In this document: piece after piece, positions 18,863-64,000 of the stretch
How positions within the stretch are numbered: position 1 is the stretch's first letter
How the letters are laid out: each line of letters starts with the position of its first letter
Assembly: GCA_046757025.1 (NCBI GenBank)
Contig: JBHHXN010000002.1
Coordinates: 53,000-116,999, forward strand
From: a bacterium
GTDB lineage: Bacteria; Zhuqueibacterota; Zhuqueibacteria; Oceanimicrobiales; Oceanimicrobiaceae
DNA: 64,000 nucleotides
Direction of reading: 5' to 3'
Made by a program: the position numbers and the translations under genes
The notes under the pieces: generated by a model
The model's database searches: none
Told to the model about the DNA's origin: nothing
What the model saw: only the letters and a program-made list of their open reading frames with translations

Positions 18863-18865
18863 TCA

Positions 18866-22683: not shown

Positions 22684-22687
22684 CTAC

Positions 22688-22897: not shown

Positions 22898-22910
22898 AAA
22901 GAATAATACA

Positions 22911-24689: not shown

Positions 24690-24734
24690 ACCGTCAACCA
24701 GTTGTTAATAATTATCGGATGTAATCATAGCTAA

Positions 24735-24762
24735 GCCCTGCCAAACGAGTGGGGCTGTTTTA
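24735..24762 (+). terminator. Possible terminator after yidC
   Basis: AGCCCTGC...GTGGGGCT stem (two G-U pairs) followed by GTTTT. Confidence 0.4.
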
Positions 24763-24843
24763 ATTTAAGAGCTGCTCAATGAATAATAGTGTAAGTATTC
24801 CAAGATATTTTTTGGGCACAGAAAAATTTAATTTCGCGAACCG

Positions 24844-26295: not shown

Positions 26296-26300
26296 ATTAA

Positions 26301-26316
26301 TGTTTCACGTGAAACA
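26301..26316. promoter_or_regulatory. parS centromere site
   Basis: Perfect palindrome TGTTTCACGTGAAACA. Confidence 0.92.
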
Positions 26317-26339
26317 CAAAAAGATGAATTGGTAGCCAT

Positions 26340-28226: not shown

Positions 28227-28230
28227 AAGC

Positions 28231-35227: not shown

Positions 35228-35910
35228 AGTTTTTTATGCGAATTGTTGTTCTATTTATTTTAACGATTAATTTTATCGTCGTCTCAAATATATCGGCGCA
35301 GTTAAAAACCCCACAGAGCGGGTTTGTACTGGCCAGATTAAAATATCACGGCGGCGGCGACTGGTATAATGACCCGTCTATAATTCCGAACCTTTTGAAT
35401 TTTATGTCCCAAAATACCAACATCAAAGTTGGTGAAAAAGAACAAACCGTTGAAATCGTGAACGAAGATCTTTTTTCGTTTCCAATCATATTTATGACCG
35501 GGCACGGCCGAATTTCTTTTTCAAAAGAGGAGGCGGCCAGACTGCGATTATATTTAACATCTGGTGGATTTCTATTTGCGGATGATGATTATGGTATGGA
35601 TAAATCTTTTCGCGAAGAAATCAAAAAAGTCTTTCCCGAGCAGCCACTGGTAGAAATTCCCTTTTCACATCCCATCTACCATTGTCATTTTGAATTTCCG
35701 AACGGTCTTCCAAAAACGCATGAACATGATGGGGGCCCTCCAAAGGGATATGGCATTTTTTATGATGGCAGGTTGGTGGTATTTTATGTTTTCAACAGCA
35801 ACATTTCAGACGGTTGGGCCGACCCCCAGGTACACGGCGACCCTCCGGAAGTGCGGCAAAGGGCGCTGGAAATGGGCACCAACATCGTGGTTTATGCTTT
35901 AACAAATTGA
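35224..35910 (+). CDS. DUF4159 domain exported protein
   Basis: Signal peptide; LKYHGGGDWY, MTGHG, YLTSGGFLFADDDY, HPIYH. Confidence 0.85.
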   Translation: MKFFMRIVVLFILTINFIVVSNISAQLKTPQSGFVLARLKYHGGGDWYNDPSIIPNLLNFMSQNTNIKVGEKEQTVEIVNEDLFSFPIIFMTGHGRISFSKEEAARLRLYLTSGGFLFADDDYGMDKSFREEIKKVFPEQPLVEIPFSHPIYHCHFEFPNGLPKTHEHDGGPPKGYGIFYDGRLVVFYVFNSNISDGWADPQVHGDPPEVRQRALEMGTNIVVYALTN

Positions 35911-35917
35911 GGTTCAA

Positions 35918-38900: not shown

Positions 38901-39298
38901 AACAGCTCCTGAAAGAAGTTGGCAATCGCGGGGAGCTGCTCGGTGATTTGAACAAAGTGAGCGAAGACATGGAAAAAGTGGTTCAGGAATTGCAAAAACA
39001 AAATGTCAACCGCTCTACCCTCGATCGACAAAAACGAATCCTGTCGAGATTACTCGACGCGCAACGTTCCATGCATAACAGGGATTACAGCAAAAAGCGA
39101 AGAGCTGAGACCGGCAAAGAATACCGTCCGTTAAGCCCGGAGGCATTGCCGGCAACGGTTCTTTCCAAAAAAGATCGATTGCGGGATGAATTGCTAAAAG
39201 CTATGAAAGAAGGCTACTCAAAGGATTTTAAAGAATTGATACGAAAATATTTTGAGGCGCTAAATCGCGAACAGATAGAGGAGTCGTTAAACAATTAA
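35918..39298 (+). CDS. DUF4175-like large membrane-anchored protein (3 TM, Ig-like domains, long Q/E-rich coiled coil)
   Basis: N-terminal TM helices, AQDDFGL, EAFDND, long coiled coil, C-terminal ELIRKYFEAL. Confidence 0.75.
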   Translation: MDVHDHYFNKLLKKLSTLRSRLKKTILVENALHFGVLMLITVVIALLLESIFYFEPGTRILLLSISGFILVGGFSYLVLRPLYSLFFQKKSPDDITLALKVGDRFHQVRDKLADALQVFKKHESNPERYSLELVDASLAITFEEIKHFDFETVVEKAGIKKALKIGFISLLLTAGIFILFPSGLFNASFRLFHPTQSFAKNTGLDFEVAPGNLEVVKGESVEIQARISGAEISQLNLVFKKANSKDFERKELRAVVLNQFKYTLENLTDDVEYYVEVENKQSQHYLLSVVELPFVRNLQVKLRYPKYTGLGSQLLDENVGDLTALKGTTVELYLKTNKTVNSAEINFEDTKRIPLTINGPEITGRFVLKRSGHYHFSLIDKKGRQNLNPIEYRMEITEDQFPLVQITFPGQDVDLGEDMLIPLTVEAQDDFGLSKLRLGYKILSGGVNESPLQYIDLPTPKKSEDKLLINYTWQLAELEIFPEDVIAYFAEAFDNDRISAPKSSKSITYHVRFPSIYEMYDEIARGHEETIEQLDEMYDKSESLKEDLKQIVQEMKKEPELNWEEKQKVQEAVQSQEKMQQELQDIQERLDEMVNRMEQNDLLSMETLQKYQELQKLMEEMLTPELQEALRELQKSFDEVDPQKLKEAMEKFAASQEDFLKSIERTMNLLKKLQIEQKLDEAIRKAQDLLKRQEELNKQATDSPQKQNSSKYAQEQKGLRKDTGNLSENLEELKKRMSEFPGMPEKRIDAALNEINKNGLKSQMQQATNQFQQGDFDGAQKTGQQISQNLQELLETLQTAQQELSDQQKQEVVRALSQSTFDLLNLSKQQENLMNSTQGMDRNSPGMNETADQQQDLLSGLARTTNQLYELSQKTFFVTPEIGKALGKSMSGMRQSLQSLEARKSGTSLQGQGEAMAGLNEAVSQLRNSMKKLNGASSAIGFQEMMQRLTGMSEQQQGINQRTSEMGQKPGMSMEQQAAMSRLAAEQRAVQKSLEQLLKEVGNRGELLGDLNKVSEDMEKVVQELQKQNVNRSTLDRQKRILSRLLDAQRSMHNRDYSKKRRAETGKEYRPLSPEALPATVLSKKDRLRDELLKAMKEGYSKDFKELIRKYFEALNREQIEESLNN

Positions 39299-39299
39299 T

Positions 39300-41168
39300 A
39301 TGTCTAATCTACCAAAGAAAGTATTTGCTAAATTTTTATGTTTTTTCATTTTCACGTTTTGCGCAGCAAGCATTCCACCGGAAAAGGCCTTCGCGCAATC
39401 CCAAAATCAGAACAGCAGCCGTATTCGCGTGGCCCAGGATTTTGAGCGCCGAGGCGATTTCAGTTCTGCCCTTAAAATATATCGCAGCTTGTTCGAGCTG
39501 GTTCCCCAAAATCAACTTTATTATGAAGGCGTCAAGCGCAATATGATACGCCTTAAATTGTACGATGAATTGATCGATTTGATCCGGTTTCGGATTGGTC
39601 TCAGAAACGATCCCCGATTTCATGCCGACCTCGGCAACGTTTATTACAAAAAAGGCGAGCAGGAGCAAGCATTACAGATTTGGAAGTTGCTGTTGCAAAG
39701 GTATCCAACGAATCGCTCGGTTTATCCGTATGTGGCCAGCGCCATGTTGGCTAACCGCCTTTACGACGAAGCCATCGAGGTTTATAAACAGGCCAGAGAA
39801 AATTTCCGCAATGAGGATTTATTTGTCTTCGAGTTGGCCAATATTTACGTTTTGCGTTTGAATTACAAAGCTGCCACGCTGGAATATCTGCGGTATTTGG
39901 AAAAAAATCCACAGCAATTTAATTATATTGAAGGCCGGATTGCCAGTTACACGAAAGAGCCCGAACAGGCAAGGGTCGTCGCGGAGATATTAAAAGCGAA
40001 CCTATCTTCTACCAAGCATGAATATTTGTTGCGCAAGCAACTGGCCGATCTTTATTTAAGAATTGAGGATTATGGCAATTCGTTGACCGAATTCAAATTG
40101 CTTGAAAATATTCCCAATCCATTGAACAATCAGAACAAAGCGGTTGGCCAGGAGATCTATTTCTTTGCTGAAAAGGCGCTCAATGCCGGAGAGTATGATT
40201 ATGCCCAGCAAGCCTTTGATTTAATTCTCACTAAATATAGAAACTCGCCGTACCGAATCCGAGCGCTTTTGGGCGTGGCGCTCGCCAAACAAAAACAAGG
40301 TCGTTCTGCCGAAGCCATCGAAAGTTTTCGGGCGCTGATCAAAGCCGCTTCCCGGAATCCATGGGCAGGAGAGGCGCAGTTTCAAATCGCTGAAATATAC
40401 TTCGATGATTTTTTTGATCTCGATCGAGCGTTGGCTTCTTATTATGCGTTACTCAAAAAATTCCCCAACGGTCGAAATTCCGTGGATGCCTATTTTAGAA
40501 TAGGAGATTGTTTTACAGCGAAGGGTGATTTACAGACGGCCATAACGTGGTACAAGAAACCCCTGGCTCGCAACGATGTGAAAAACGACATCAAGGATCG
40601 CTCGGTGTACAAAATAGCCTATGTCGATTTTCTGAACGGGCAGTTTGATGAAGCGCTGGAGAAACTCAATAAAATTACCACGAACCTCAGTAACAAACAG
40701 GAGGCCGAACAAAAGTATGTCAACGATGCACTTGAACTGAGCCTTTTGATTGAATCCAATAAAAAAGCCTCACCCGAGGCCCTGTCCGAGTATAGCCGGG
40801 CGCAGAAACTTAAATTTCAAAGAAAAACCGCCGAGGCCATTAAGACCTTACAAACCGTTGTTGCAAATTACCCGCAAGCAGAAATTCTGGATGAGACCCT
40901 GCTTGAGCTGGGAGAACTGGAGAAAATACGAGGCAACTTTCAGGCGGCTATCGATTACTTACAGACTTTGTTAGAAAACCAATCCGCCAGTGTGTATAAC
41001 GCGTTAGCCCAGAAGCGTATTGGTGAAATATATGAAGAGCATCTTGGTGATTTTCAGAATGCCGCCAGGGCCTACGAATTGGTACTGATAAATTATCCCC
41101 ACAGTCTTTATCTGGAAGAAGTCCGGCACAGAATCAGAGCCTTGCAAACCCGACAATTGAACAATTGA
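39300..41168 (+). CDS. Exported tetratricopeptide-repeat protein
   Basis: Signal peptide ending AFA; many TPRs with the A...Y..L...YP.S pattern. Confidence 0.85.
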   Translation: MSNLPKKVFAKFLCFFIFTFCAASIPPEKAFAQSQNQNSSRIRVAQDFERRGDFSSALKIYRSLFELVPQNQLYYEGVKRNMIRLKLYDELIDLIRFRIGLRNDPRFHADLGNVYYKKGEQEQALQIWKLLLQRYPTNRSVYPYVASAMLANRLYDEAIEVYKQARENFRNEDLFVFELANIYVLRLNYKAATLEYLRYLEKNPQQFNYIEGRIASYTKEPEQARVVAEILKANLSSTKHEYLLRKQLADLYLRIEDYGNSLTEFKLLENIPNPLNNQNKAVGQEIYFFAEKALNAGEYDYAQQAFDLILTKYRNSPYRIRALLGVALAKQKQGRSAEAIESFRALIKAASRNPWAGEAQFQIAEIYFDDFFDLDRALASYYALLKKFPNGRNSVDAYFRIGDCFTAKGDLQTAITWYKKPLARNDVKNDIKDRSVYKIAYVDFLNGQFDEALEKLNKITTNLSNKQEAEQKYVNDALELSLLIESNKKASPEALSEYSRAQKLKFQRKTAEAIKTLQTVVANYPQAEILDETLLELGELEKIRGNFQAAIDYLQTLLENQSASVYNALAQKRIGEIYEEHLGDFQNAARAYELVLINYPHSLYLEEVRHRIRALQTRQLNN

Positions 41169-50287: not shown

Positions 50288-51023
50288 ACCCTATTCACAA
50301 TTGGCCTTCATATATGATTTTATCATGCGTCATGTGGATTATCATCGCTGGGCTAATTATATCAATAGCCTATTGTTGAAGGCATCCTCGCCGACGAGCA
50401 AGATACTGGATATTGCCTGCGGCACGGGTAGTTTGCTTCTGAAACTGGCTGAATTAAATTACCGGGTAGCGGGTTTTGATGAGTCAGAAAATATGGTCAA
50501 AATCGCTCAAAAAAATGCACGAAAACAGCACAAGTCCGTGCCTTTCTGGCGGGGGTCGATGCTCGATTTCGCCGTCCACAATAAGTTCGGGGCCGTCGTA
50601 TGCACGTATGATAGCATGAATTATTGTCTGACTCCCTCTTGTATAAACTCCATATTTCTAAACACCTATGATGTTTTGCATCCAGGGGGATTATTTATTT
50701 TCGATATATGCACAGAAAAAAATTCTCGGAGAAATTTTTTAAAGTATTTCGAAAAGGATTCCACCGACGATTTTCGATACGTAAGGGAGTCGTATTACAT
50801 GCCGCGAAAGAGGTTTCAAATTAACGAGTTTGAGATTATCTGGAACCAGGACTCCAGCATCATTTACCATGAAATTCACAAGCAGAGAATTTATAAAATA
50901 GAAGAGATAAAAAATAAAATACCCCATGAGTTATTTTTATTAGAGGGGATTTATGAAGGATTTTCCATGCACAAAGGTACGGAAAAATCAGACCGTGTGC
51001 ATTTTGTTTTGAAAAAGAAATGA
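50250..51023 (+). CDS. Class I SAM-dependent methyltransferase
   Basis: LAFIYD, ILDIACGTG, CTYDSMNY, LHPGGLFIFD. Exact start uncertain (overlaps the pdxA end). Confidence 0.88.
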   Translation: MRLDWRQNKKTVEPYSQLAFIYDFIMRHVDYHRWANYINSLLLKASSPTSKILDIACGTGSLLLKLAELNYRVAGFDESENMVKIAQKNARKQHKSVPFWRGSMLDFAVHNKFGAVVCTYDSMNYCLTPSCINSIFLNTYDVLHPGGLFIFDICTEKNSRRNFLKYFEKDSTDDFRYVRESYYMPRKRFQINEFEIIWNQDSSIIYHEIHKQRIYKIEEIKNKIPHELFLLEGIYEGFSMHKGTEKSDRVHFVLKKK

Positions 51024-51043
51024 GATCGGACAGGTGAACGCGG

Positions 51044-51694
51044 ATGGTTAAATTACATAATTTGAAGATGCGGTATAAAAGCGGCGACGGACTAGATGGG
51101 GTTAATTTTGAAATTCAAAATGGAGAATTTGTCTTTTTGGTCGGGCCCACCGGTGCAGGTAAAAGTACGGTGCTAAAGATTATCTATATGGATGAATTTC
51201 CGGATGAGGGCTACATCGTGGTGGACAATTATAATTCTTTATATGTAACAGAAAATGACATTCCCTACTTGCGTCGCAAACTCGGCATCGTGTTTCAGGA
51301 CTTTAAATTATTGGAGGATCGCGATGTGTTTGAGAATGTAGCATTTGCACTCCGAGTAACCAACGCCCGTCAAAAAGATATTAAAAAGAAAACCTTTCGT
51401 GCTTTGGCAGATGTGGGCTTGAGTTTAAAAAGCAGAAAAATGCCATCTGAGCTTTCCGGGGGCGAACAACAAAGAGTGGCCATTGCCCGGGCCATTGTAA
51501 ATGAGCCGTTGATTTTATTAGCTGACGAGCCAACGGGAAATTTAGATCCCAAAACCACCGTGGAAATCATGCATATTCTTAACAAAGTCAACGCGCGAGG
51601 CACTGCCATTTTGATGGCCACGCATAATTATGAATTGGTAAACCGAACCGCCAAACGGGTGGTATCCATCAAAAATGGAAGGACCTTAAATTGA
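51044..51694 (+). CDS. ftsE: Cell division ATP-binding protein FtsE
   Basis: [41 protein letters not shown]. Confidence 0.95.
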
Positions 51695-52560
51695 TTCAAA
51701 GCCTGCTGTTTTCCTTGAAAGAGGGGTTTGGTGGATTAGTACGCTCCAAATTGACGGGATTCATTGCCACGGTCACCGTGGTCATTTCTCTGATTCTAGT
51801 GGGAATCTTTCTCATCGTGACGATCAACCTGGGACGTCTCGTGAATGATTTGCGTAGCCGAGTCGAATTGGAGGTCTTTTTAGATGATTCCATGGATGAA
51901 ACAAAAATTCAAGAATTAACCAGTAAAATCAATCGTTTTGAGGGTGTGGACAGTTTGCGGTACATATCAAAAGATATGGCGGCTGAGGAGTTTAAACAAC
52001 TCTTTAAAAATCAACAAGAAGATTATTTTGCCACCCTGGGTTATAATCCGTTGCCATCCTCCTTTCGAATTAAATTGACCAAAGATTATCAAACCGCCAG
52101 CGGTGCTGAAAAAGTGTTTCAATACCTGAACTCATTGGCCGAAATCAACGAAGAGGATATTGTTTACAGACGCGAGTACGTTGTTTTGTTGGAAAAATAT
52201 ATTAAAGTCGCCATCGTGGTGGATTTTGTCATTGGAATAATTATTTGTTTAAGCGCGTTGCTTCTGGTTTCAAACAATATTCGCTTGATTATCTCATCAA
52301 AAAATAAAATTATTGAAACTATGAAACTTGTAGGTGCGACACGTCATTTTATAAAAACACCGTTTTATATTCAAGGGATCGCGCAAGGTCTGTTGGGTGG
52401 AGTTTTTTCGGCACTATTTTTGCACGGCTTGGTGAAGCTTTTAGAATTCGAAATCTCTGGATACTTGTCTGTAGACGGGACAATTTACATAATACTGATA
52501 AATTTAGGTGTATTACTTGGTTTTACCGGTAGCTTTCTTGCCATTAGAAGATATTTATAA
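51691..52560 (+). CDS. ftsX: Cell division permease FtsX
   Basis: NPLPSSF, NNIRL, MKLVGAT..FIKTPF; follows ftsE. Confidence 0.93.
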   Translation: MIQSLLFSLKEGFGGLVRSKLTGFIATVTVVISLILVGIFLIVTINLGRLVNDLRSRVELEVFLDDSMDETKIQELTSKINRFEGVDSLRYISKDMAAEEFKQLFKNQQEDYFATLGYNPLPSSFRIKLTKDYQTASGAEKVFQYLNSLAEINEEDIVYRREYVVLLEKYIKVAIVVDFVIGIIICLSALLLVSNNIRLIISSKNKIIETMKLVGATRHFIKTPFYIQGIAQGLLGGVFSALFLHGLVKLLEFEISGYLSVDGTIYIILINLGVLLGFTGSFLAIRRYL

Positions 52561-52598
52561 ATCTTCGCTTTTTGCGGTTTGACAAATTATGTTTTTTC

Positions 52599-52627
52599 TT
52601 GACATACAATAGAAAAATTAGTATCTT
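52599..52627 (+). promoter_or_regulatory. Putative sigma-70 promoter of the hrcA operon
   Basis: TTGACA-17nt-TATCTT. Confidence 0.6.
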
Positions 52628-52698
52628 ACAATAATTTATATTGAAATACTGTCGATATTGGAATCATTAGATTTTAGTGTAAAGTTCATTGATGCGAT

Positions 52699-53739
52699 AT
52701 GTATTCTGATTTACTTTCCCAACGAGAATCAATCATTTTAAGAAGCGTCGTTGAATGTTACGTTCAAAACGCGGCCCCAGTGGGTTCTCGCCTTTTGGTT
52801 AAAAAATACGAATTAGGAGTGGGCCCTGCAACCATTAGAAATGTTATGAACGATTTGGAAGAAATGGGTTATTTGCAGCAGCCCCATGTTTCTGCGGGTC
52901 GAGTTCCCACTGATAAAGGATACCGTTTTTATGTGGATTCCATGATGACGGTTCCCTCTCTCGCTCAAAACGAGCGCAGAATTATATTGGATAATTTGAG
53001 GAAAGTTTCGGTGGATGTGTATGATTTGTTTGAAACGACCTCTCAAATTTTGGGTAAAATATCCAGTCAATTAGGGGTGGTATTGGAACCGAGATTTCAT
53101 CAAGGAGTCCTGCAAAAAATTGAATTGGTCTCTATTGCTGAAAATAAAATTTTAGCGGTGATTTCAATAAAGTCGGGATTTGTAAAAACTATTATGCTGG
53201 AAGTTGATATCACGCTCTCCCCGTCTCAACTTCAAAAAACCTCATGGTTTATCAACGAACGTTTGGCCGGCCTGACTTTGAAACAAATTAAAGATACCAT
53301 CGGAGTGCGACTTACTTCGAGTGCGGCCAATGTGAATCATAAACTGATACATTTAATTGTAAAGTCTTCTCACAAACTTTTCAGTTTTGACGATGAAAAA
53401 AATTTGCATCTCGGGGGAACGCACAATATTGTGTCGAACCCCGAATTTTCTGACCGAAACGAAACAGTGAAACTTTTAGAATTAATCGAAAGTAAACGAG
53501 GTATTTTGCATCAGTTTAATGAAACGCCGGAGGAAAAACTATCGATCACTATTGGCGGAGAGAATAAAGACGGTATGTTTAAAAATTGCAGCATTGTTTC
53601 TTCAAAATATTGTGTGGGCAATGTATCGGGAATTTTAGGGGTAGTGGGTCCAACGAGAATGCAATATGCTAAAATCATTTCTTTAGTAAATTATATGGGG
53701 AAAGTGTTAACTCGCGAATTGTATTCAAATTTGAGTTGA
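52699..53739 (+). CDS. hrcA: Heat-inducible transcription repressor HrcA
   Basis: PVGSR, ATIRNVM.DLEEMGYL.QPHVSAGRVPTDKGYRFYVD, GVVGPTRM.Y. Confidence 0.97.
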   Translation: MYSDLLSQRESIILRSVVECYVQNAAPVGSRLLVKKYELGVGPATIRNVMNDLEEMGYLQQPHVSAGRVPTDKGYRFYVDSMMTVPSLAQNERRIILDNLRKVSVDVYDLFETTSQILGKISSQLGVVLEPRFHQGVLQKIELVSIAENKILAVISIKSGFVKTIMLEVDITLSPSQLQKTSWFINERLAGLTLKQIKDTIGVRLTSSAANVNHKLIHLIVKSSHKLFSFDDEKNLHLGGTHNIVSNPEFSDRNETVKLLELIESKRGILHQFNETPEEKLSITIGGENKDGMFKNCSIVSSKYCVGNVSGILGVVGPTRMQYAKIISLVNYMGKVLTRELYSNLS

Positions 53740-53760
53740 TTAAAAAGGGATGTTGAAAAA

Positions 53761-54354
53761 ATGACTAAGGAAGTTTTGAATAAATCGAAATCAGAAACGA
53801 ATACTTTGAACAGAACCGGCGAAAACAACAACAACGAAAAAGTTCAAAATAAAGCCAAGCTAAATTCACAAAAAACCACGTCGGCGGTCAAGCTAAATAA
53901 ACTTAAAAAGAAATTACAAGAATCTGACAACGAGATTAATTCTTTAAAAGATCAATTGCTGAGAAAGGCGGCCGAATTTGAGAATTACAAAAAGAGGCGT
54001 GAAACCGAGTATATACAATTACTAAGAAACGCGAACGCCGAATTGATCACGGAGATTTTGCCGGTCCTGGACGATCTGGAACGTTCAATAAAAGCTTCTA
54101 AGGAAACCCAGGACTTCCAGGGGCTTTTCAAGGGTGTTGAATTAATATATAAAAATTTAGTTAAGATACTGGAAAATAGAGGTGTAAAACCGATAGAAGC
54201 GATCGGGCATGCTTTTGACCCTGAGCGGCACGACGCTTTAATGCAAGTCGAAAACGAGGAACATCCTTCTGGTGTGGTCGTGGAGGAACATTTAAAAGGA
54301 TATGTTATGAATGATCGGGTGTTGCGGCATTCACAGGTTCTGGTAAGTAAATAA
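53761..54354 (+). CDS. grpE: Nucleotide exchange factor GrpE
   Basis: AEFENYKKR, LPVLDDLER, FDPERHDA, GYVMNDRVLR. Confidence 0.97.
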   Translation: MTKEVLNKSKSETNTLNRTGENNNNEKVQNKAKLNSQKTTSAVKLNKLKKKLQESDNEINSLKDQLLRKAAEFENYKKRRETEYIQLLRNANAELITEILPVLDDLERSIKASKETQDFQGLFKGVELIYKNLVKILENRGVKPIEAIGHAFDPERHDALMQVENEEHPSGVVVEEHLKGYVMNDRVLRHSQVLVSK

Positions 54355-54383
54355 GACGTAAACCTTTGACTGAAAATTGAAGT

Positions 54384-55520
54384 ATGACCAAACGCGATTA
54401 TTATGAGATTTTGGGTGTGCAGCGAGATGCAACCGTTGATGAAATCAAAAAAGAGTATCGCAAATTAGCGATGAAATACCACCCAGATCGCAACCCCGGG
54501 GATAAAGAAGCAGAAGAAAAATTCAAAGAGGCGGCCGAGGCCTACGAGATTCTTAAAGATTCACAAAAAAGACAACGTTACGACCGGTTTGGTCATAGTG
54601 GTTTAAAAGGTGGTTTTGATACCTTTAGTGGATTTGACTTTGACCTTGGGGATGCTTTACGTACGTTTATGTCAGAGAGTTTTGGCTTTGGTGATATTTT
54701 TGGCATGGGCCGTCAAAGTGGGGTAAATCGAAAGAAGAGAGGTGGGGACCTGCAGTTAAGGTTAGCTTTAATCCTCGAAGAAATTGCAATGGGTGTACAA
54801 AAGAAGATAAAAATCAAAAAATGGATATTATGTCAGGAGTGTCGTGGCTCGGGTGTTGCGAAAGGTGCATCCCAAATAATCTGCCCTCAATGCCATGGGT
54901 CTGGCGAGCTCCGGCAGGTGTCGCAGTCGCTTTTTGGTCAGTTTGTCAATATCACGACTTGTTCGGTGTGTTTTGGGCAGGGTAGGGTTCCGGAAGAAAA
55001 GTGTCATCAATGTCGTGGAGAGGGGCGCGTACAGGGAGACGGGCTGATCACGGTCGATATCCCCGGTGGCGTATCTTCGGGAAATTATATCACTTTACGG
55101 GGCGAGGGAAATGTTGGGCCCAATAATGGGCCAGCAGGCGATGTAATTATTTTTATTGAAGAAAAAGAGCATGAATATTTTGAAAGACACGAAGACGACA
55201 TCCTGTATACATTGCCGCTGAGTTTTGCTCAGGTGGCGTTAGGTACGGAAGTGGAAATTCCCACCTTAAATGGGAAAGCGAAACTAAATATCCAACCCGG
55301 AACCCAAACGAACAAAATTTTGCGAATGCGAGGGAAGGGTATTCCGCGCTTACACGGTCATGGGAAAGGAGATCAACTGGTTAAGGTTGTGGTCTGGACG
55401 CCAACAAAATTGTCAGCACATGAAAAAAAGCTATTGGAAGAGTTGGCCAAAAGCGAACATTTTAAACCGCCAAAGAACGATCGCAGTTTTCTAAAAAAGG
55501 TAAAAGAAGCGATATTTTAA
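54384..55520 (+). CDS. dnaJ: Chaperone DnaJ
   Basis: J-domain with HPD, G/F region, four CxxCxGxG motifs. Confidence 0.98.
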
Positions 55521-55521
55521 T

Positions 55522-56049
55522 ATGCTTGGATTTACGCAGCAAGAGCTAAGAATTATCATATTTCTTGTTTTTGCTTTAATGCTGGGTGCGGCTGTAAAAT
55601 TTTATAAATTATACTTTGGTGAAATACTCATTCAGAAAATTGATACTGAATATTTTGATGAATTCAAAAAGCGCTCTGTGGAGATCGCGGAAGCGGATTC
55701 TCTTCGGCATCGTGTTAACAAAGAGGTTGTTTCCGAGGTGATGGGCGATGTCCATGGGCAACCATTTACTATAAGTGATTCGGAAATCACCTATGTAAAT
55801 CGCCCTGAAAATTATAAAATTGTTACGATACCAAGGGACAGCAGGTTTACGGAGTTTTTAGTTAACATAAATAAAGCCAGTCAGGAGGAGTTGCAAAGTT
55901 TACCCACAGTTGGCCCCGTGATTGCTAAAAAAATAATTACTTATCGTCAACAAAACGGAGAATTTCAAAGTATGGATGATTTATTAAATGTTAAAGGAAT
56001 TGGGAAAAAGACGTTAGAAAAAATAAAACCCTATGTTTCACTTAAATGA
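55522..56049 (+). CDS. comEA: ComEA-family helix-hairpin-helix DNA-binding protein with N-terminal TM anchor
   Basis: VNINKASQEELQSLPTVGPVIAKKII.YR...G.F...DDL..VKGIG.KT.EKI. Confidence 0.88.
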   Translation: MLGFTQQELRIIIFLVFALMLGAAVKFYKLYFGEILIQKIDTEYFDEFKKRSVEIAEADSLRHRVNKEVVSEVMGDVHGQPFTISDSEITYVNRPENYKIVTIPRDSRFTEFLVNINKASQEELQSLPTVGPVIAKKIITYRQQNGEFQSMDDLLNVKGIGKKTLEKIKPYVSLK

Positions 56050-56094
56050 ATTACATTTTGAATTAAAAAAATAATTTAATGAGAGGGAGGAGAA

Positions 56095-56988
56095 ATGGCA
56101 AGCGAAAAAGCAAGCGGATCGATTATTTATGAGTTTCTGATTGTGGTTCTGGCGGCTGTTTTAATTGCATCAATAATTTATCCAAAAAAAGTTACTGAAC
56201 AGGAGGAGTTCAATACGGAAGCGTGCAGAGCCAGAATGAGCAGCATTTTCGATGCGGAGCTTCAATATCAAAAATATAACGACGTTTATACGGATTCCCT
56301 ACCGAAGGTAATCAATTTTTTGAAAACCAATGAGCAATATGCAACTTATGTGGACTCGGTTATCAAAGGTGGACTGGATTCTATAGTAACGAAATTGGAT
56401 GAATTTGTTGAAAAGGAAAAAGTCATTGTGGCCATCATGCCTACGGAATTAGACACTGTCATGGCCGATTCGATCAATAATCTGCAACAAAGTATTAAAA
56501 TGGAAGCACGAAGGTTGGCCGGATTTGTTGAATACGTTCATGATAAAATGAAAAACTTGCCAAACACGCCAATCAATGACTTGAAGAGTGCTTTTTTGGT
56601 GGTGGATTCAAAAAAATTCACTCTGGATATGGACATTGTTAGAAATGCAATTGAAAATGAAGACCTTTTGAACGCGAAACGGGCCGCAGAAGATGCCTTG
56701 AAAAAAATCAGCTCAGTGAAAAGTATGTTTCAAGTGGTGCTTGACAACCTCTCAGAATATAAAGGTGAAAGCCTGGATTCTTTAAAATTATGTCCGAGCA
56801 TTTATCAGCCATATAAATTGGTCCATGTCGATACGTCGACGATTAAATACATAAATATCTATTGCCCCATCGACAGCAATCACATTCAGACCATTCAGAG
56901 CAATTTCTTAAAATCAAAAATTGGAGGACTCAAGCTCAAAAACCATGGCAAGATCGAACAGGGAGAAAAAAGTTGGGAATCGGGTTAA
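56095..56988 (+). CDS. Large non-canonical type IV pilin-like protein
   Basis: Leader MASEKASG|SIIYEFLIVVLAAVLIASIIYP gives G-1, E+5, P+22; helical segment ACRARMSSIFDAELQY..YNDVY; C-terminal Cys pair; strong GGAGG RBS. Confidence 0.6.
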   Translation: MASEKASGSIIYEFLIVVLAAVLIASIIYPKKVTEQEEFNTEACRARMSSIFDAELQYQKYNDVYTDSLPKVINFLKTNEQYATYVDSVIKGGLDSIVTKLDEFVEKEKVIVAIMPTELDTVMADSINNLQQSIKMEARRLAGFVEYVHDKMKNLPNTPINDLKSAFLVVDSKKFTLDMDIVRNAIENEDLLNAKRAAEDALKKISSVKSMFQVVLDNLSEYKGESLDSLKLCPSIYQPYKLVHVDTSTIKYINIYCPIDSNHIQTIQSNFLKSKIGGLKLKNHGKIEQGEKSWESG

Positions 56989-57013
56989 TTTAAGATTAAG
57001 GTGAGATATTATT

Positions 57014-57979
57014 ATGACCGAGGATGAAAATACAGGGATACTCGGAATAAGCCTAATTGACGATCAACTTAGAATAGTTGAGGGTCAAAAACATCTTAAT
57101 GAGTTTCAGATCACGCAAGTCGCACATGGAAGAGCACGGCAGTCATTTGGTTTTGAATCGTTTTCTGATTTGAGCATGGCTCGCAGATTCGCAGATGACA
57201 TTTCTCGTCTTTACAACACGCAAAACTTTCAGGTTAAGCAAGCGGCTTTTTCTATTGATTCTAGGATGGTTTTAATAAAGAAAATACCAATTGACAGCGC
57301 GTTAGATGAGAATCAAGTAGAAGATCAGTTAATTTGGGAGGTTCGTCAGTTTGCCATTTCGCCATTAAGCGAGTACATTGTTGATTTTGAACGCATCCAT
57401 TCGCCATCCACCAACGGTTTGCTGCACCACGTTCTTGTGGTAGTTGTTCGAAAGAAAATAATCGAATATTTGAAACAGATGTTCCAACACACCAATCTTT
57501 TCTTAAAAGTCATTGATGTCGATGTCTTTTCAGCGCAAAGGGCCCTACAATTGAATTATGATTATAATAGCAGCGATCGTATCGGCTTACTCGACATTGA
57601 AGAACACAAAATTCATTTCTCCATTTTGAGCGGACGCAATTATTTTTTATCTCAAGATATTGCCACAACCTTGAACGATAAAAAAGTGGCTCGGAACGAT
57701 GAATCTACGACTCGGTTGATTTCTAAAGAGATTCGCAGAATTATCCTGGACCAGCAATTAGGTCGTGGTGTGGAAGACCTCAATGAAATTTTTTTATATG
57801 GAGAGGGAGTGGAGGACATTGTTTTGGAGGGATTGCAAAATTACCACAACGTTCGAATAGATAGAGCCAATCCATTCAAAAAAGTAAAGCTTTCTACTCA
57901 TGCAAAAGAAATCATAAATAAAGCAAGAGCGGAAAGTTTCATGATTTCAGTGGGGGCAGCCCTACGCGGGATACAATAA
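57014..57979 (+). CDS. PilM-like (FtsA/actin-fold) protein
   Basis: ILGISL..DQLRIVE, WEVRQF....SEYIVDF, VIDVDVF, EIRR, EIFLYGEG, ANPF, SVGAALRG. Confidence 0.75.
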   Translation: MTEDENTGILGISLIDDQLRIVEGQKHLNEFQITQVAHGRARQSFGFESFSDLSMARRFADDISRLYNTQNFQVKQAAFSIDSRMVLIKKIPIDSALDENQVEDQLIWEVRQFAISPLSEYIVDFERIHSPSTNGLLHHVLVVVVRKKIIEYLKQMFQHTNLFLKVIDVDVFSAQRALQLNYDYNSSDRIGLLDIEEHKIHFSILSGRNYFLSQDIATTLNDKKVARNDESTTRLISKEIRRIILDQQLGRGVEDLNEIFLYGEGVEDIVLEGLQNYHNVRIDRANPFKKVKLSTHAKEIINKARAESFMISVGAALRGIQ

Positions 57980-58007
57980 ATACTCATTAAATATCGAGGA
58001 GTAAAAT

Positions 58008-59111
58008 ATGGTCGATATAAACTTAATCGGCGACGATAAATTGGGGGATGAAAAATCGGGTGAGGAAGAACGAGTGGACGAGTTCACTCAAACGTCCAGC
58101 ATGGATACCCAGGAATTGGCGTTTGAGGAACGAACCGAAACCTTCGATACCACCAAAACGGCGGGCCTGACTCAAAAAAGAAGTTATTCCTCCTTGATTT
58201 CGACCTTGATAATTATGAGTGTGATTATATTGTTAGGGTGGGCGATTTATTATTTCATGTTCCAAAGTACTGAGCTTGAAAATCCGGCTGAAATACCGCA
58301 AATTATACCTGAGTCGGCAACGGTGGAGGATAATCTAACTGATGAAACGGAGCCTTTTTCAATGGATACCGGCGACGAAAATGTCACTGATGAGGATCCA
58401 AATTTAGTTGAAAGAGAAACGCGGCCTCTACCGCCTGCAACAACCGAAGATGTGCCAGTGGCCAATCCACCTACTTCAACTGTTCGTGAGAGTAGTAATC
58501 CTTTGGCCAACCAGTTGGCTGCCAGCTCCAGTTTGGCCATTAAAACGGTTACAGATATTTTAACGGCCATCCCACCCACTCTCAACACGACTTTGTTATC
58601 CTATGCCGGCCGTCGGCTTCGTTTTGAGTTTGTAGCCGCTTCTACTCAACAAGCGAATGATTATACTCAACAACTAAATCAATACTTCGGCCGCAATAAT
58701 TTCTCAGTTTTATCTGAAAATCAAATAACTGGTAACGGTCAGGGATTTGAAAAAGTGCTGGTTTCGGCATCTGTTTCTGGCTCCGGTGATGCAGATGCGG
58801 GCGGGTTCGTGGACTTTGTGAACGTGAACCAATTTAATGACACAATCAAAAGTTTGGCAAGCCGGGCGGGTTTGCAGATTAGACAATTGAAATCTTTGCC
58901 AAGTAGATTGTCCGATGGATTCATGAAAGTGCCCATTCTCATGCGATTAAACGGAAGCAAAGCCGGGCTGCTTGACTTTTTCGCCGATCTTGAAGCGCAA
59001 AGTTTAAATATTGAATTGACAAAAGTGCTGATCGTGTCATCAGACAGAACAAACTTTAGTGATGAAAATCTGGTTTTGGTGATAAATTTGAACATTTACG
59101 AGCCTTCATAA
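58008..59111 (+). CDS. Bitopic PilN-PilO-like fusion protein
   Basis: N-terminal MVDINLIG (PilN INLLP-like), single TM, acidic P/T linker, then PilN-like (ILTAIPPTL...RFEFVAAS..) and PilO-like (AGLQI...VPILMRLNGS...DFFADLE) segments. Confidence 0.6.
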   Translation: MVDINLIGDDKLGDEKSGEEERVDEFTQTSSMDTQELAFEERTETFDTTKTAGLTQKRSYSSLISTLIIMSVIILLGWAIYYFMFQSTELENPAEIPQIIPESATVEDNLTDETEPFSMDTGDENVTDEDPNLVERETRPLPPATTEDVPVANPPTSTVRESSNPLANQLAASSSLAIKTVTDILTAIPPTLNTTLLSYAGRRLRFEFVAASTQQANDYTQQLNQYFGRNNFSVLSENQITGNGQGFEKVLVSASVSGSGDADAGGFVDFVNVNQFNDTIKSLASRAGLQIRQLKSLPSRLSDGFMKVPILMRLNGSKAGLLDFFADLEAQSLNIELTKVLIVSSDRTNFSDENLVLVINLNIYEPS

Positions 59112-59131
59112 TATTTCGCATTCAGTACGCC

Positions 59132-59683
59132 ATGCGGATAATTTCCGGCAGTAAAAAAGGGCTCAAATTAGCATCTGTAAAAAATAGCCCGATAAGACCA
59201 ACGACAGACCGTTTTAGAGAAGTCATTTTCAATGTTATTGACAACCGTTTTAGAAATAAACCGGTTTTAGATATATTTGCTGGGAGTGGCAGTTTAGGGA
59301 TTGAGGCCTTGAGCCGTGGCGCGGCCAGGGCTATTTTTATTGAAAACAATTCACGAGCCCTTTCAATTATAAAAAAAAATTTAACACTTAGCAATTTTGA
59401 GGAACGGGCGGAAATTGTCAAGGTTTCAGCCATTCGTGCGCTAAAAAAACTGACGTCCTCCAATGAGAAATTTTATCTGATTTTTGCGGATCCTCCTTAT
59501 GCAGAAACAATTTTGCAACAAACCATCCATATTGTAGATAAAAATGAGTTGCTTGCCGAAGAGGGCTGGTTAATTGTCGAGCATGCTTCGAAGTTGAACT
59601 TAAATACACAAATAGGATCCTTCATACTCAAAGTACGAAAACGACAGGGAGAATCGGAAGTTTCATTCTATCGATATGCCTGA
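59132..59683 (+). CDS. rsmD: 16S rRNA m2G966 methyltransferase RsmD
   Basis: MRIISG..KG, RPTTDR, DIFAGSGSLGIEALSRGA, ADPPY. Confidence 0.96.
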   Translation: MRIISGSKKGLKLASVKNSPIRPTTDRFREVIFNVIDNRFRNKPVLDIFAGSGSLGIEALSRGAARAIFIENNSRALSIIKKNLTLSNFEERAEIVKVSAIRALKKLTSSNEKFYLIFADPPYAETILQQTIHIVDKNELLAEEGWLIVEHASKLNLNTQIGSFILKVRKRQGESEVSFYRYA

Positions 59684-60170
59684 AAAGAAAAAAATTGCTA
59701 TTTATCCCGGCACCTTTGATCCCATAACAAATGGGCATCTGGATATTATCCAACGCGCAGTAAGTTTATTTGACAGGGTTATCGTTGCGGTTACAACCAA
59801 TCCTGCCAAGGTTCCTTTGTTTTCGGTAGAAGAACGGATCGATATGATAACTTTATCCACCACGCGTTTGGAAAATGTCTTAGTGGAGTCTTTTGACGGA
59901 CTTCTGATGGATTATGCTAGAAAAAAAAGTGCACATGTGATCGTGCGAGGATTGCGCGCAATTACGGATTTCGAATATGAATTTCAAATGGCGCTGGTCA
60001 ACCGAAAATTAGCTGATAGCATCGTGACGGTTTTTCTCATGCCAAATGAAAAATACACCTACCTGAATTCAACTATCGTTAAAGAGGTCGCGAAATTTCA
60101 GGGCGATGTGAGCTCTTTTGTACCTGAGTTGGTTCATAAAAGATTGGTGAGCAAGTACCAACTGTCATGA
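59676..60170 (+). CDS. coaD: Pantetheine-phosphate adenylyltransferase
   Basis: [26 protein letters not shown]. Confidence 0.98.
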
Positions 60171-61138
60171 GATTCACGGAGCAAATAAAACTAAAAGCTC
60201 AACGTGCTCAAAGGAAATTGGTGTTTCCCGAGGGAGACGAAAAGCGCGTCTTGCAAGCGGTAGAATTTTTAACTGCGAATCGTCTTCTTAAGTGCGTTGT
60301 GTTAGGAAGCGAAGAGAAAATCAAAAAAACCGCTGCTCAATATTCTATCGACGTCAACGGCGTCGAAATGGTGGATCCTTTCAATTCTCCCTTAGTTACT
60401 GAGTTTCGTGATATCTTTTATGAGCTGCGAAAGGAGAAAGGCCTTTCGCTAGAAAACAGCGAAGCAGTTATTCGTCAGCCGCTTTATTTCGGGGCAATGC
60501 TGGTGAGAGTGGGTATTTGTGATGGCAGTGTGGCAGGCAGTGTCAACACAACCGGAGACGTATTACGGGCAGCGATTCAGGCCATCGGTCTCACCAGCGG
60601 TGTTTCTTTGGTATCGAGCACGTTTGAAATGGAGTTGACGGACCGTCGCGTTCTGACTTATGCGGATTGTGCGGTGGTTCCACAACCCGACGTAAAGCAA
60701 TTAGCGGATATTGCCATATCTTCGGCGGGTACACATCGCCGTCTGACCGGTGAAGAGCCCCGTGTGGCTATGCTTTCGTTTTCAACGAAAGGGAGTGCAC
60801 AACATGAAATGGTGGAAAAGGTGCAGAAGGCCGTCGAAATGGCCCGCACGAAGAAACCAGATTTAATGATTGACGGTGAACTTCAGGTGGATGCCGCAAT
60901 AGTGGATTCCGTAGCCGCTTCCAAAGCGCCTGACAGTCCGGTCGCAGGTCAAGCCAATGTACTCATTTTTCCGGACCTCGATGCGGGAAATATTGCTTAC
61001 AAACTGACAGAAAGATTGGCCAAAGCCAAGGCCATTGGACCGATAATGCAAGGATTAGCCAAGCCAGCCAGCGACCTTTCCCGCGGATGCAGCTGGCAAG
61101 ACATCGTCGATGTCGCATGTATCACGGCCTTATTGTAA
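60167..61138 (+). CDS. pta: Phosphate acetyltransferase (short form)
   Basis: [46 protein letters not shown]. Confidence 0.95.
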
Positions 61139-61565
61139 GAATAGAGAGTGCCGTTGTCCATTACCATTGCGACGCCATTTATTTGAATGAGATCAGTTCC
61201 AAATGAACCAAACTGGAAAATCGAGTGAATCGCGGGAGCCAAAAAACACATTTTACTTTTTCATGCAATGCACAAAACATCTTTCCGATTATAAGATATT
61301 GATTGAAGAAAATTAAAGAAATAATAGTAGTTTACCGATAAATAAACTGATAGAAAATGCAATCCACGGACCGGATTTTTTGTTACTCCACCCTTTCAAT
61401 TTTTAGGAATTTTTTTCTGAAAATTCGCTGCCAGACTTTCCATTTTGTAATGTCCAAATCTGATTTAATCGTCTTGAAATTGAGTGAAGCACGGATAGCG
61501 GTTTTGTTAAAACTTTTTAAATAATTTAATGAAATGATCTTTGTAACATTTAAAAAGATTTAAAT

Positions 61566-61720
61566 ATTAATGATTCTGTTGATAAAGTCCATTTTGCCCT
61601 CAGCCCTCATGCTGAGCAAAGTCTAAGTATGACGGAAAAACAGCAAGTTACGACCTTTCCGGAACGCAAGTAGGGACTCAAGCTGAACGTTTCTTCGACT
61701 TTATCAACAACGTCATTAAT
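61566..61720. mobile_element. 155-bp MITE-like element with 24-bp terminal inverted repeats
   Basis: Left ATTAATGATTCTGTTGATAAAGTC (61566-61589) versus right GACTTTATCAACAACGTCATTAAT (61697-61720): 21/24 complementary; non-coding interior with a TCATGCTGAGC motif. Confidence 0.6.
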
Positions 61721-61772
61721 TTCATCATCAAAAAAATAACAGTATAATAATTAACACAGTGAGTACAGACCT

Positions 61773-62897
61773 ATGGAGAGCTTAGGATTAAACAACGATG
61801 TTTTGGTCGGGGATCGTAAATTTCATGTGCAGACCAATTATTCTGAATCGGAGAAAATAATTATCTCGAATGTATTCAATGAAGGCCAGGTAATCGAGTC
61901 CAGGGAAATTTACTCCGGCGATGGCACTTCCGAACAGGAAATTGAAAATAAGATGAACGAACTTCATCAGGAATTAATTACTGAAATGGAAGTTCTGTAT
62001 TACATTTATGAAAAAGTAAAAACGGTTCGGCACGCAAATTCATCCAACAAATTGGGGCTATTATTTTTAAGAAAAAATTTGTTAGACGAGGCCGTTGAGC
62101 AATTCAATCTGGCTTTGGAAATCGATCCAAATTTTTCAGAAGTGTATGCAAATTTAGGCAAGGCACTGATTATTTACGAATCACTGGACGAGGCTGTGAA
62201 TGTTCTTTGCAAAGGCGCCGATCAAGCCCCCAATTTTGCTGACATGCAAAATTATTTAGGAATCGCGTATTTGTATAAAGAGAAATTTTCGGAGGCCGTT
62301 GTGCATCTGCAAAAAGCCATCGAGTTAAATCGGAATTATATTGGGGCACACTATCATTTGGGGATGGCTATTCTGGCACAGGCCGCGGGTTCGGAAACCG
62401 AGGACGGAGTTGTGGACGCCGCGACCGAACAAACCGCTCTTGAGCATCTGACCATTGCCGCTGAGAAGATGATAGATCGGCACATTCCCAATTTTCAGAA
62501 GGTTATGAATCTTGTCAATCAAAAGTCATTCAAAGAAGCGATTGATGAATTTCTGTTGATCAGACCGCGCGACATATTAACCCATGTTTCTAACATTGAA
62601 AACGAGTTTTATTTGAAATTCATGTACGGCGGCAAAGGGAAGGATGATAGTTACATAACTGAATACGTTGAGAAGTTGCGGGAAATTATCGAACAAAATC
62701 CCAACTATGCGGACGCCCGTAACAATCTCGGCGTGGCCTATTTAATTCAATGTCGAAACCTGTTTTTAAAAGCGCTGGAGGAATTTAGAAAAGCCCTTAA
62801 AATAAATCAAAATTACAAGAAAGCAGATAAAAACCTGAAATTAGCGGAAAACGACGGCAAAGGATTTTTGATTCTTTTGCGGGCGATTCTCAAATAA
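61773..62897 (+). CDS. Cytoplasmic TPR protein with an uncharacterised N-terminal domain
   Basis: N-terminal GLNNDV..GDRKFHVQT; TPRs (PNFSEVYANLG, PNFADMQNYLG, PNYADARNNLG). Confidence 0.82.
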   Translation: MESLGLNNDVLVGDRKFHVQTNYSESEKIIISNVFNEGQVIESREIYSGDGTSEQEIENKMNELHQELITEMEVLYYIYEKVKTVRHANSSNKLGLLFLRKNLLDEAVEQFNLALEIDPNFSEVYANLGKALIIYESLDEAVNVLCKGADQAPNFADMQNYLGIAYLYKEKFSEAVVHLQKAIELNRNYIGAHYHLGMAILAQAAGSETEDGVVDAATEQTALEHLTIAAEKMIDRHIPNFQKVMNLVNQKSFKEAIDEFLLIRPRDILTHVSNIENEFYLKFMYGGKGKDDSYITEYVEKLREIIEQNPNYADARNNLGVAYLIQCRNLFLKALEEFRKALKINQNYKKADKNLKLAENDGKGFLILLRAILK

Positions 62898-63085: not shown

Positions 63086-64000
63086 ATGAAAGTTTCACCA
63101 CAAAAAAAATTTTTACTCATATCAATCATTTCTTTTTCATTCGTAGTTGTTGGATCAAGAACGCTTGGTGCAGGTTCAATTACAAACGCGGATTTTACGG
63201 CCGGAGCCACATCAAATTATACATTTAATTTCTCTTTAGCAGCTACAGACACTTTATTTCCAAGCGACAGCTTACTAATAATTTTTCCGGCAAGTTCTGG
63301 CTTTAATATTACAGGTGTAAACTCTGTATCTTCTACTACAATTGATGGATCTTTCACAGTTTCGGTTTCCAATGATACCATCACCATTAACAGAACGGTG
63401 GGCGGAGATACGGTAACCGTTTCAAATCCGGAAATTACATTTGGCATTGTCACCAATTCACAGACAAAGGGAAATTACACAATCAATCTCGTCGGGCCGA
63501 GAGGAATTTCAGATAATGCAGAAGTAACCATTTCAGCCGGTCCGATAGCGAGTTTCACATTGAGTGATCCGGGTGCGCAGACAGCAGGCGTGGGTTTTAG
63601 TCTTTCGGTTTCTGATGCACGTGATAGTTTTAATAACTTGGCCTCCGGTACGGTGACGGTGAGTTTTCAGGATGGGGGTACGCATCTGGCTCCGGATAGC
63701 ACACCGCCGACGTTGAATGCGATCACAGTGACAGGAGGCAGCGGCAGCGCGACGCAGACGTTGGTGTTGGCCGAGAGCGGGGTGATCTTGCGTGGAACGA
63801 GTGGTTCGGTAACGGATGACACGGCACCTTTTACGGTGAGTGCGTCGTCGATAGCGAGTTTTACGTTGAGCGATCCGGGTGCACAGACGGCGGGGGTGGG
63901 TTTCAGTTTGTCGGTTTCGAATGCGCAGGATAGTTTTCAGAATTCGGCCTCCGGTACGGTGACGGTGAGTTTTCAGGATGGGGGTACGCATCTGGCTCCG
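63086..64000 (+). CDS. 5' part of a large secreted protein with tandem ~102-aa Ig-like repeats (adhesin/surface-protein-like); truncated by window end, absent from ORF track
   Basis: Open frame MKVSPQKKFLLISIISFSFVVVGSRTLGAG... with no stop to 64000; S/T/G/V-rich; IASFTLSDPGAQTAGVGFSLSVS...SGTVTVSFQDGGTHLAP recurs. Confidence 0.85.
   Translation, partial: MKVSPQKKFLLISIISFSFVVVGSRTLGAGSITNADFTAGATSNYTFNFSLAATDTLFPSDSLLIIFPASSGFNITGVNSVSSTTIDGSFTVSVSNDTITINRTVGGDTVTVSNPEITFGIVTNSQTKGNYTINLVGPRGISDNAEVTISAGPIASFTLSDPGAQTAGVGFSLSVSDARDSFNNLASGTVTVSFQDGGTHLAPDSTPPTLNAITVTGGSGSATQTLVLAESGVILRGTSGSVTDDTAPFTVSASSIASFTLSDPGAQTAGVGFSLSVSNAQDSFQNSASGTVTVSFQDGGTHLAP
63543..64000 (+). repeat. Intragenic tandem repeat, 306-bp period
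   Basis: CGATAGCGAGTTT at 63543 and 63849; 55-bp exact duplicate 63640-63694 = 63946-64000. Confidence 0.9.

Follow-up and report, generated by a model that had tools for sequence, protein, structure and literature searches.

A four-gene locus behind dnaJ encodes ComEA-, pilin-, PilM- and PilN/PilO-like proteins: a possible inner-membrane platform for DNA uptake

The locus described here consists of four genes, A to D (55522-59111), which lie directly behind hrcA-grpE-dnaJ in a 64,000-nt stretch of bacterial DNA (contig JBHHXN010000002.1), referred to below as the window; all gap and site coordinates are positions in this window. The genes encode a ComEA-type DNA-binding protein, a pilin-like protein, a homologue of PilM and a PilN/PilO-like protein made as a single chain. 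With moderate confidence, we read them as that portion of a divergent type IV filament machine which sits in the inner membrane, plus a DNA receptor; DNA uptake would be the favored purpose. Seen as parts of a filament machine, they give an uncultured phylum a candidate apparatus for competence or secretion. Nearly all source records listed for the homologues label three of the four genes hypothetical, and we found no description of the locus or of the B family in the literature on KSB1 type IV pili and competence, which is not proof that none exists.

55522-56049, + strand: gene A, ComEA-type DNA-binding protein, 175 aa
56095-56988, + strand: gene B, pilin-like protein, 297 aa
57014-57979, + strand: gene C, PilM-like protein, 321 aa
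58008-59111, + strand: gene D, PilN/PilO-like single chain, 367 aa

Identity of the gene products

The product of gene C is a homologue of PilM, as the initial annotation had supposed. It scores 80.8 bits against the Pfam family PilM_2 (cut-off 27) and stays below the stricter TIGR01175 cut-off (83.4 versus 133 bits). When a family profile built from 17 orthologues was compared with PDB sequences, all four matches were PilM chains, among them those of M. xanthus (E = 1.6e-25) and P. aeruginosa (9e-19) and the T. thermophilus 'competence protein PilM' (2ych, 9.6e-10). FtsA was considered in place of PilM and rejected, because no FtsA model is listed at E ≤ 1 and every PDB match is a PilM.

Gene D encodes a conserved cytoplasmic N-terminus followed by one transmembrane helix, which is the arrangement of PilN, and two periplasmic domains in tandem. 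Its parts are as follows.

58008..58037, + strand: N-terminal decapeptide MVDINLIGDD of D, candidate PilM-binding peptide (29 aligned sequences)
58188..58262, + strand: single transmembrane helix of D, residues 61-85 (AlphaFold model)
58500..58772, + strand: periplasmic domain 1 of D, residues 165-255 (model pLDDT about 90)
58824..59105, + strand: periplasmic domain 2 of D, residues 273-366, PilO/GspM-like (Pfam, PDB sequence and Foldseek)

Nine of the ten positions of the decapeptide are invariant in the 29 aligned sequences and I7 is nearly so; more distant orthologues begin with MNLL. The decapeptide appears to resemble the conserved N-terminal motif of PilN to which PilM binds. Cytoplasmic residues about 25-60 (58080-58190) are almost unchanged in the closer homologues and different in a distant clade, and may form a second binding site for another partner.

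The AlphaFold model of D (predicted local distance difference test, pLDDT, 73.9) comprises a disordered cytoplasmic part, the transmembrane helix, a disordered linker and, predicted with good confidence, two alpha-beta-beta-alpha-beta-beta domains. The linker is acidic and proline-rich, varies in length, reaches to about residue 160 and has a pLDDT below 50 for most of residues 91-157. Domain 2 yields 35.8 bits against T2SSM_b (cut-off 21.7) at residues 271-332 and E = 0.007 against PilO. Orthologues of D pass the cut-offs for PilO (28.4 versus 22) or T2SSM_b (27.5), and the D family profile retrieves M. xanthus PilO from the PDB sequences (6.8e-4). The best Foldseek matches of D are P. aeruginosa PilO 2rjz (E = 1e-4, root-mean-square deviation 1.7, 95 columns) and 5uvr (TM-score 0.79); as the output does not state the aligned part of D, we assigned them to domain 2 from the sequence matches.

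Because D has one transmembrane helix and not two, it is not a plain end-to-end fusion of PilN and PilO. The initial annotation had called it a fused PilN-PilO, and the layout (PilN-style N-terminus, transmembrane helix, two tandem domains) and the PilO/GspM-like character of domain 2 agree with that description, whereas domain 1 has no sequence match. A single-chain PilN plus PilO is thus the best reading of D, of which one half, the PilO-like second domain, is demonstrated.

The N-terminus of B corresponds to the published definition of a pilin N-terminus, namely a short polar leader ending in Gly or Ala and followed by 20-25 mainly hydrophobic residues (PMC10191384). Its polar leader has eight residues, ends in Gly8 and precedes 21 mainly hydrophobic residues, with Glu13 at position +5 and Pro at +22. 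In hhalign comparisons with proteins of E. coli K-12, the pseudopilin GspG was matched both by the KSB1 alignment of B (71%, E = 3.6e-5, 66 columns) and by the short B forms described below (92%, E = 5e-7, 73 columns). The alignments span the N-terminal 66-73 residues and place Gly-1, Glu+5 and Pro+22 in register, and the bitopic negative controls GspM, GspC, GspB and GspL reach no more than 0.6% against the B family. The sole pilin model listed for B is likewise GspG, as a weak match (E = 0.11), and the N-termini of short family members give weak, below-cut-off matches to the ComGE (2.4e-6), GspG, ComGC and PilA models.

With a pattern that required Gly or Ala at -1, the N-terminal motif was found in 197 of 241 B family sequences, with a leader of 7-9 residues in 168 of the 197. 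Position +1 of these motif-bearing members is Ser in 159 and Asn in 29, position +5 is Glu in 121, Lys in 72 and almost nothing else, and position +22 is Pro in 195. Lys in place of Glu at +5 reverses the charge at a residue thought to pair with the N-terminus of the neighboring subunit.

The model of B (pLDDT 89.3) consists of a first helix of 56 residues (7-62), then a bundle of helices (69-231) and, at the C-terminus, a small part that has three short strands; the C-terminal module is conserved and carries two Cys. We conclude that B is pilin-like at its N-terminus, with unusual residues at +1 and +5 and an unrecognized head. The 'large pilin' of the initial annotation is accordingly half supported: the N-terminal helix is in register with GspG, whereas prepilin models and PDB folds are unmatched.

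No Pfam or NCBIfam family covers B. Its 81 close homologues are all about 297 aa long, and the few named ones are hypothetical proteins, bar one with the JGI label 'PilE'. The family profile retrieves 320 relatives among 1.84 billion representatives, 145 of them at E ≤ 1e-10 and 30 at E ≤ 1e-30, and the family includes forms of about 150 aa and of about 560-690 aa. Short and long forms share the N-terminal 90 and the C-terminal 80 residues, and therefore the middle part is a variable insertion. This helical insertion shrinks stepwise by lineage, giving proteins of 297, about 250 (251-253 aa in L013 and L015) and about 150 aa (e.g. P0197), and grows to about 600 aa in other lineages, with the terminal modules kept; it looks like a lineage-specific display or binding domain. 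For the wider family, Atlas gives taxon leads, to be taken as leads only: a short form points to Bacteroidota and B itself to Fidelibacterota.

The product of gene A is a ComEA-type protein, in agreement with the initial annotation. It has an N-terminal hydrophobic segment, which would anchor it in the membrane, a variable middle and a C-terminal helix-hairpin-helix (HhH) domain (residues about 110-172). The HhH region lies above the curated cut-offs of HHH_3 (83.7 bits, cut-off 27) and TIGR00426 (66.5, cut-off 53.1). The full-length comE subfamily model TIGR01259 is matched by residues 105-174 only, with 92.6 bits against a cut-off of 152.35. Orthologues of A are 134-177 aa long, and their middle part is divergent and variable in length.

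The start of A (55522-55560) carries a Gly-Phe-Thr..Glu string that resembles a prepilin motif. We rejected A as a pilin, because its hydrophobic stretch comes after polar and charged residues and the Gly is replaced by Ile or Ala in distant orthologues; its N-terminus is more likely to be an ordinary signal anchor. A defense or phage origin was also rejected, as PADLOC gave no match and PHROGs a single weak one, of unknown function, for A.

Conservation of the gene order

The initial annotation had named conserved synteny as a test of its proposal, and a comparison with related loci bears the synteny out. The locus is framed by two groups of genes on the same strand.

52699..55520, + strand: hrcA, grpE and dnaJ, upstream part of the conserved block (Pfam HrcA, GrpE and DnaJ; TIGR02349 416 bits)
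59132..61138, + strand: rsmD, coaD and pta (TIGR00095 164 bits; Pfam CTP_transf_like and PTA_PTB)

A single search through species-representative genomes, made with the alignment of B, yielded 16 related loci, whose records are labelled KSB1 (5), 'bacterium' (5), 'uncultured Calditrichaceae' (2) and 'uncultured Cytophagia' (4). The order hrcA-grpE-dnaJ-A-B-C-D-rsmD-coaD is found in all 15 that extend upstream, the sixteenth (L012) beginning inside B. Between dnaJ and rsmD, the order A-B-C-D is kept even where B has fallen to 28-30% identity. In two loci blastp failed to find D, yet it is there as an open reading frame (ORF) of 286-296 aa. On the outer flanks, ftsEX adjoins in 12 loci (L005 being cut within ftsX) and coaD is followed by pta in 10; beyond these, the distant loci have different genes. 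Because the same order recurs across the 16 related loci, the arrangement of A-D is not due to chance.

Proposed mechanism and relation to known systems

We propose that C, as a PilM-like cytoplasmic scaffold, would clamp the invariant N-terminus of D, a contact predicted from the homologies. D would cross the membrane once and place two tandem PilN/PilO-type domains in the periplasm; with both domains in one protein, a single chain would therefore do the work of the usual PilN-PilO pair. B would be a GspG-like (pseudo)pilin with a large helical insertion, processed at its leader and handed as a subunit to the platform of C and D, where it may assemble into a filament. A, a membrane-anchored ComEA, would act in the periplasm as the receptor of incoming double-stranded DNA. 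Genes for the ATPase, platform protein, prepilin peptidase, secretin and ComEC channel would have to lie at other places in the genome.

By analogy, the DNA translocator of Thermus is the closest working model for A-D. PilMNO of Thermus binds pilin as well as the ATPase PilF, and acts together with a membrane-anchored ComEA (PMC6325625). The locus likewise encodes a pilin-like protein and a membrane-anchored ComEA alongside its other genes. It resembles the PilM-PilN-PilO platform of type IVa pili and of T. thermophilus in having a PilM homologue and a partner with a conserved N-terminus, one transmembrane helix and a PilO-type domain. It differs from that platform in joining both periplasmic domains behind one transmembrane helix, where two bitopic proteins are usual, and in the disordered linker of about 75 residues that follows this helix. 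Moreover, C is without the usual Asp and Gly of the nucleotide motifs, and no pilP, pilQ, pilB or pilC is nearby.

A fusion of such components has a precedent in type II secretion, where PilM and PilN are fused into GspL (PMC10191384). Compared with GspL-GspM, the parts are the same (an actin-like cytoplasmic domain, a transmembrane helix and ferredoxin-like periplasmic domains), and D matches T2SSM_b. The fusion point, however, is different: the PilM-like C is separate, and it is the two periplasmic domains that are joined in D.

The likeness of B to E. coli K-12 GspG is confined to the N-terminal region aligned above. At +1, B has Ser and not Phe, and its family has Glu or Lys at +5. B also differs in its helical insertion of about 160 residues, in a different, two-Cys C-terminal module and in having no PDB fold match. 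A resembles ComEA in its C-terminal HhH domain and N-terminal hydrophobic anchor; in contrast to ComEA, it stays below the comE subfamily cut-off, has a lineage-specific middle and is encoded after dnaJ instead of beside comEC. In the accessible part of the report on a transformation screen in Riemerella, an HhH protein is listed and no pilus-like genes are.

For the catalogue of type IV filaments, the locus would add a PilN/PilO pair in one chain and a large unannotated pilin-like family of 320 representative clusters. If the proteins polymerize, the switch between Glu and Lys at the residue thought to drive subunit docking would offer a test of assembly models. A bolder proposal is that B founds an unrecognized class of type IV pilins across phyla of the FCB group, marked by Ser or Asn at +1, Glu or Lys at +5, Pro at +22, a Cys-Pro C-terminal module and an insertion of variable size. 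Together with a single-chain PilN-PilO and an ATP-blind PilM, this class would make up a new filament subtype, which in KSB1 would serve as a constitutive organelle for DNA uptake, tied into the operon of the chaperones. We regard this wider proposal as improbable.

Points against DNA uptake and alternative explanations

Several observations weigh against a filament machine for DNA uptake. The first concern B. The prepilin signature models (Pfam N_methyl and the NCBIfam prepilin-type domain) are unmatched by B at E ≤ 1, and Foldseek of its model against PDB gave no match at E ≤ 0.001, the best being generic helical bundles. The model shows no recognizable pilin head fold, in which a beta-sheet packs against the first helix in its C-terminal half. 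Among the other E. coli K-12 pilins compared by hhalign, neither PpdD (2.4-2.8%) nor GspH, GspI, GspJ and GspK (≤ 1.1%) was matched. In addition, the Lys+5 of 72 of the 197 motif-bearing family members sits badly with the Glu5 salt bridge of assembled filaments (PMC10191384).

The second set concerns C and D. In the HMMER alignments, C has a Ser aligned to the first Asp of both M. xanthus and P. aeruginosa PilM and a Glu aligned to the Gly of the DIGAT motif of P. aeruginosa PilM; an Arg is aligned to the Lys of both proteins. The nucleotide-binding motifs of the actin fold are thus not intact in C, and its ATP binding may be lost. Such a loss need not abolish function, because a Thermus PilM mutant without ATP binding still binds and stimulates the motor ATPase, as reported (PMC6325625). 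As regards D, the Pfam PilN model is unmatched by the whole protein at E ≤ 1, and against one orthologue (L012) it gives a weak match (E = 0.11). Domain 1 scanned alone has no Pfam match, including PilN at E ≤ 10. Likewise, hhalign detected no similarity between the two domains, or between either of them and E. coli GspM, GspL or GspC, so that domain 1 is without a detectable relative.

The third set concerns the rest of the machine. By Pfam, T2SSE, T2SSF, Peptidase_A24, Secretin and Competence domains are absent from the 44 other ORFs of the window, four of which have no Pfam match even at E ≤ 0.05. The initial annotation was therefore right in that pilB, pilC, pilD, pilQ and comEC are missing, a statement that holds for the 64-kb window only. 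Motor, platform, peptidase, secretin and ComEC domains are also absent from the 25 of 67 flanking ORFs that were scanned in the related loci. Finally, the 16 loci all represent a single lineage, with synteny over a block of at least 10 genes. That ComEA adjoins B-C-D is therefore weak evidence that they are functionally tied, and the position of A may reflect inherited order rather than a functional link.

From this last point follows an alternative in which B, C and D form a type IV filament machine for another use, such as protein secretion by a T2SS-like route (T2SS, type II secretion system) or a surface pilus, and ComEA adjoins through inherited order. The only known pilin that B resembles is GspG, the T2SS major pseudopilin, and the best Pfam match of D is the T2SS-M model. 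With the hrcA-to-coaD block syntenic throughout the lineage, adjacency says little. Moreover, the FCB group is reported to have a divergent secretion system derived from type IVa pili, with a very divergent major pilin (PMC6668835, PMC5553014). As a lead only, an Atlas cluster resembling a short B form is automatically named 'Type II secretion system protein'. However, A is set off from its neighbors by gaps no wider in kind than those between B, C and D, and A is kept after dnaJ in all 15 loci that reach that far although its sequence falls to 30-40% identity. In addition, the GspG of Cytophaga is recognized by BLAST and by the Pfam GspG model (PMC5553014), whereas B is unrecognized by that model. 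Taking these observations together, we consider a use in secretion or as a surface pilus less likely than one in DNA uptake.

A second alternative is that C and D are a PilMNO-type scaffold taken over by another envelope machine or for a housekeeping function of the envelope, and B is an uncleaved single-pass membrane protein. A precedent is found in H. pylori, where homologues of PilM, PilN and PilO occur without a type IV pilus and build a cage around the flagellar motor (PMC10823254). The likeness lies in a PilMNO-type module without the remaining pilus gene set nearby. The H. pylori operon differs in having no pilin-like or ComEA gene and in encoding PilN and PilO as separate proteins. The absence of any other pilus gene nearby, the altered nucleotide-binding motifs of C and the lineage-wide position of the genes among housekeeping genes (ftsEX, the chaperones, rsmD and coaD) all agree with reuse. 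So do two features of the B family that processed pilins seldom show, namely Lys+5 in 37% of members and Ser or Asn at +1. On the other hand, B aligns in perfect register with the whole first helix of GspG, including Gly-1 and a near-invariant Pro+22, which would be hard to explain for an ordinary membrane anchor, and the ComEA neighbor fits a filament-based uptake system. We therefore judge such a reuse improbable, and prefer a filament machine with DNA uptake as its purpose. If the proteins of the B family do not polymerize, the locus would join H. pylori as a second example in which parts of PilMNO have found a use other than in a pilus.

Expression of the locus

The initial annotation had described four co-oriented ORFs, a gap of 1 nt after dnaJ, short gaps between the genes and no obvious terminator, and both the coordinates and a terminator scan agree with it. 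The stop codon of dnaJ ends at 55520 and the ATG of A begins at 55522. The following gaps are 45 nt (A to B), 25 nt (B to C), 28 nt (C to D) and 20 nt (D to rsmD), and further downstream rsmD and coaD overlap by 8 nt and coaD and pta by 4 nt. Over the whole stretch from hrcA to pta, the only sizeable gaps on the + strand are 138 nt upstream of hrcA and 634 nt downstream of pta. The scan of 50900-62000 for terminator-like sites gave 17, compared with 10.2 ± 3.8 in shuffled sequence. None of them is intergenic on the + strand between dnaJ and rsmD, and both + strand sites of this span, at 58605 and 58755, fall within gene D. Two expression signals were identified.

52599..52627, + strand: promoter-like site TTGACA-17-TATCTT in the 138-nt gap before hrcA (10 of 12 consensus matches; a consensus match only)
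56083..56092, + strand: strong Shine-Dalgarno sequence of B, GAGGGAGGAG, 2 bases ahead of the start codon (read directly)

The promoter-like site may be the start of a long transcription unit, from which A-D would be transcribed together with the genes before them, and promoter-like sites inside the unit are no commoner than in shuffled sequence. Co-expression of A-D with hrcA-grpE-dnaJ would agree with both the spacing and the kept gene order. Gene B has a near-perfect Shine-Dalgarno sequence, and in 15 of 15 related loci its position is occupied by an AGGAGG or GGAGGG core. The Shine-Dalgarno sequences of C and D are weaker, and most neighbors (hrcA, grpE, dnaJ, A, rsmD and pta) have none. 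This strong signal of B suggests that the protein is abundant.

The initial annotation went further and placed the module in the HrcA heat-shock regulon, so that stress would switch on DNA uptake. The position of A, 1 nt after dnaJ here and -14 to +31 nt from it in the other loci, speaks for such an arrangement, as do the lack of an intergenic terminator-like site and the limitation of sizeable + strand gaps to those before hrcA and after pta. However, a search of the window for CIRCE-like inverted repeats, with up to 3 mismatches to the consensus allowed, gave none. B, C and D also have strong ribosome-binding sites of their own, though weaker in C and D than in B, and internal promoter-like sites stay at the shuffled level. 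Furthermore, the same string of genes contains rsmD, coaD and pta, and therefore a mixed housekeeping operon is indicated rather than a dedicated stress regulon. For these reasons, control of DNA uptake by heat shock appears very improbable.

Genomic context

Rfam and tRNA scans found no RNA genes in the part of the window from 50 to 64 kb. The window as a whole covers the chromosomal origin region, with dnaA, dnaN, recF, the DciA gene, gyrB and gyrA on the - strand and rnpA, yidC, mnmE, mnmG and rsmG on the + strand. The origin genes span 8297-21666 and 22345-28932, and the 680-nt gap between them (21666-22345) is likely to be oriC. Genes for a DUF4159 protein, a DUF4175 protein and a TPR protein follow in a row at 35224-41165, a layout that resembles that of aerotolerance (Bat-like) operons.

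At the far end, the ORF at 63086-64000, which runs off the window, has no Pfam match and contains a stretch of about 50 residues twice, nearly identical and about 95 residues apart. In the related loci, a giant protein of up to 1640 aa stands at this position, in some cases with Big_1 matches. The ORF probably encodes a repetitive surface protein.

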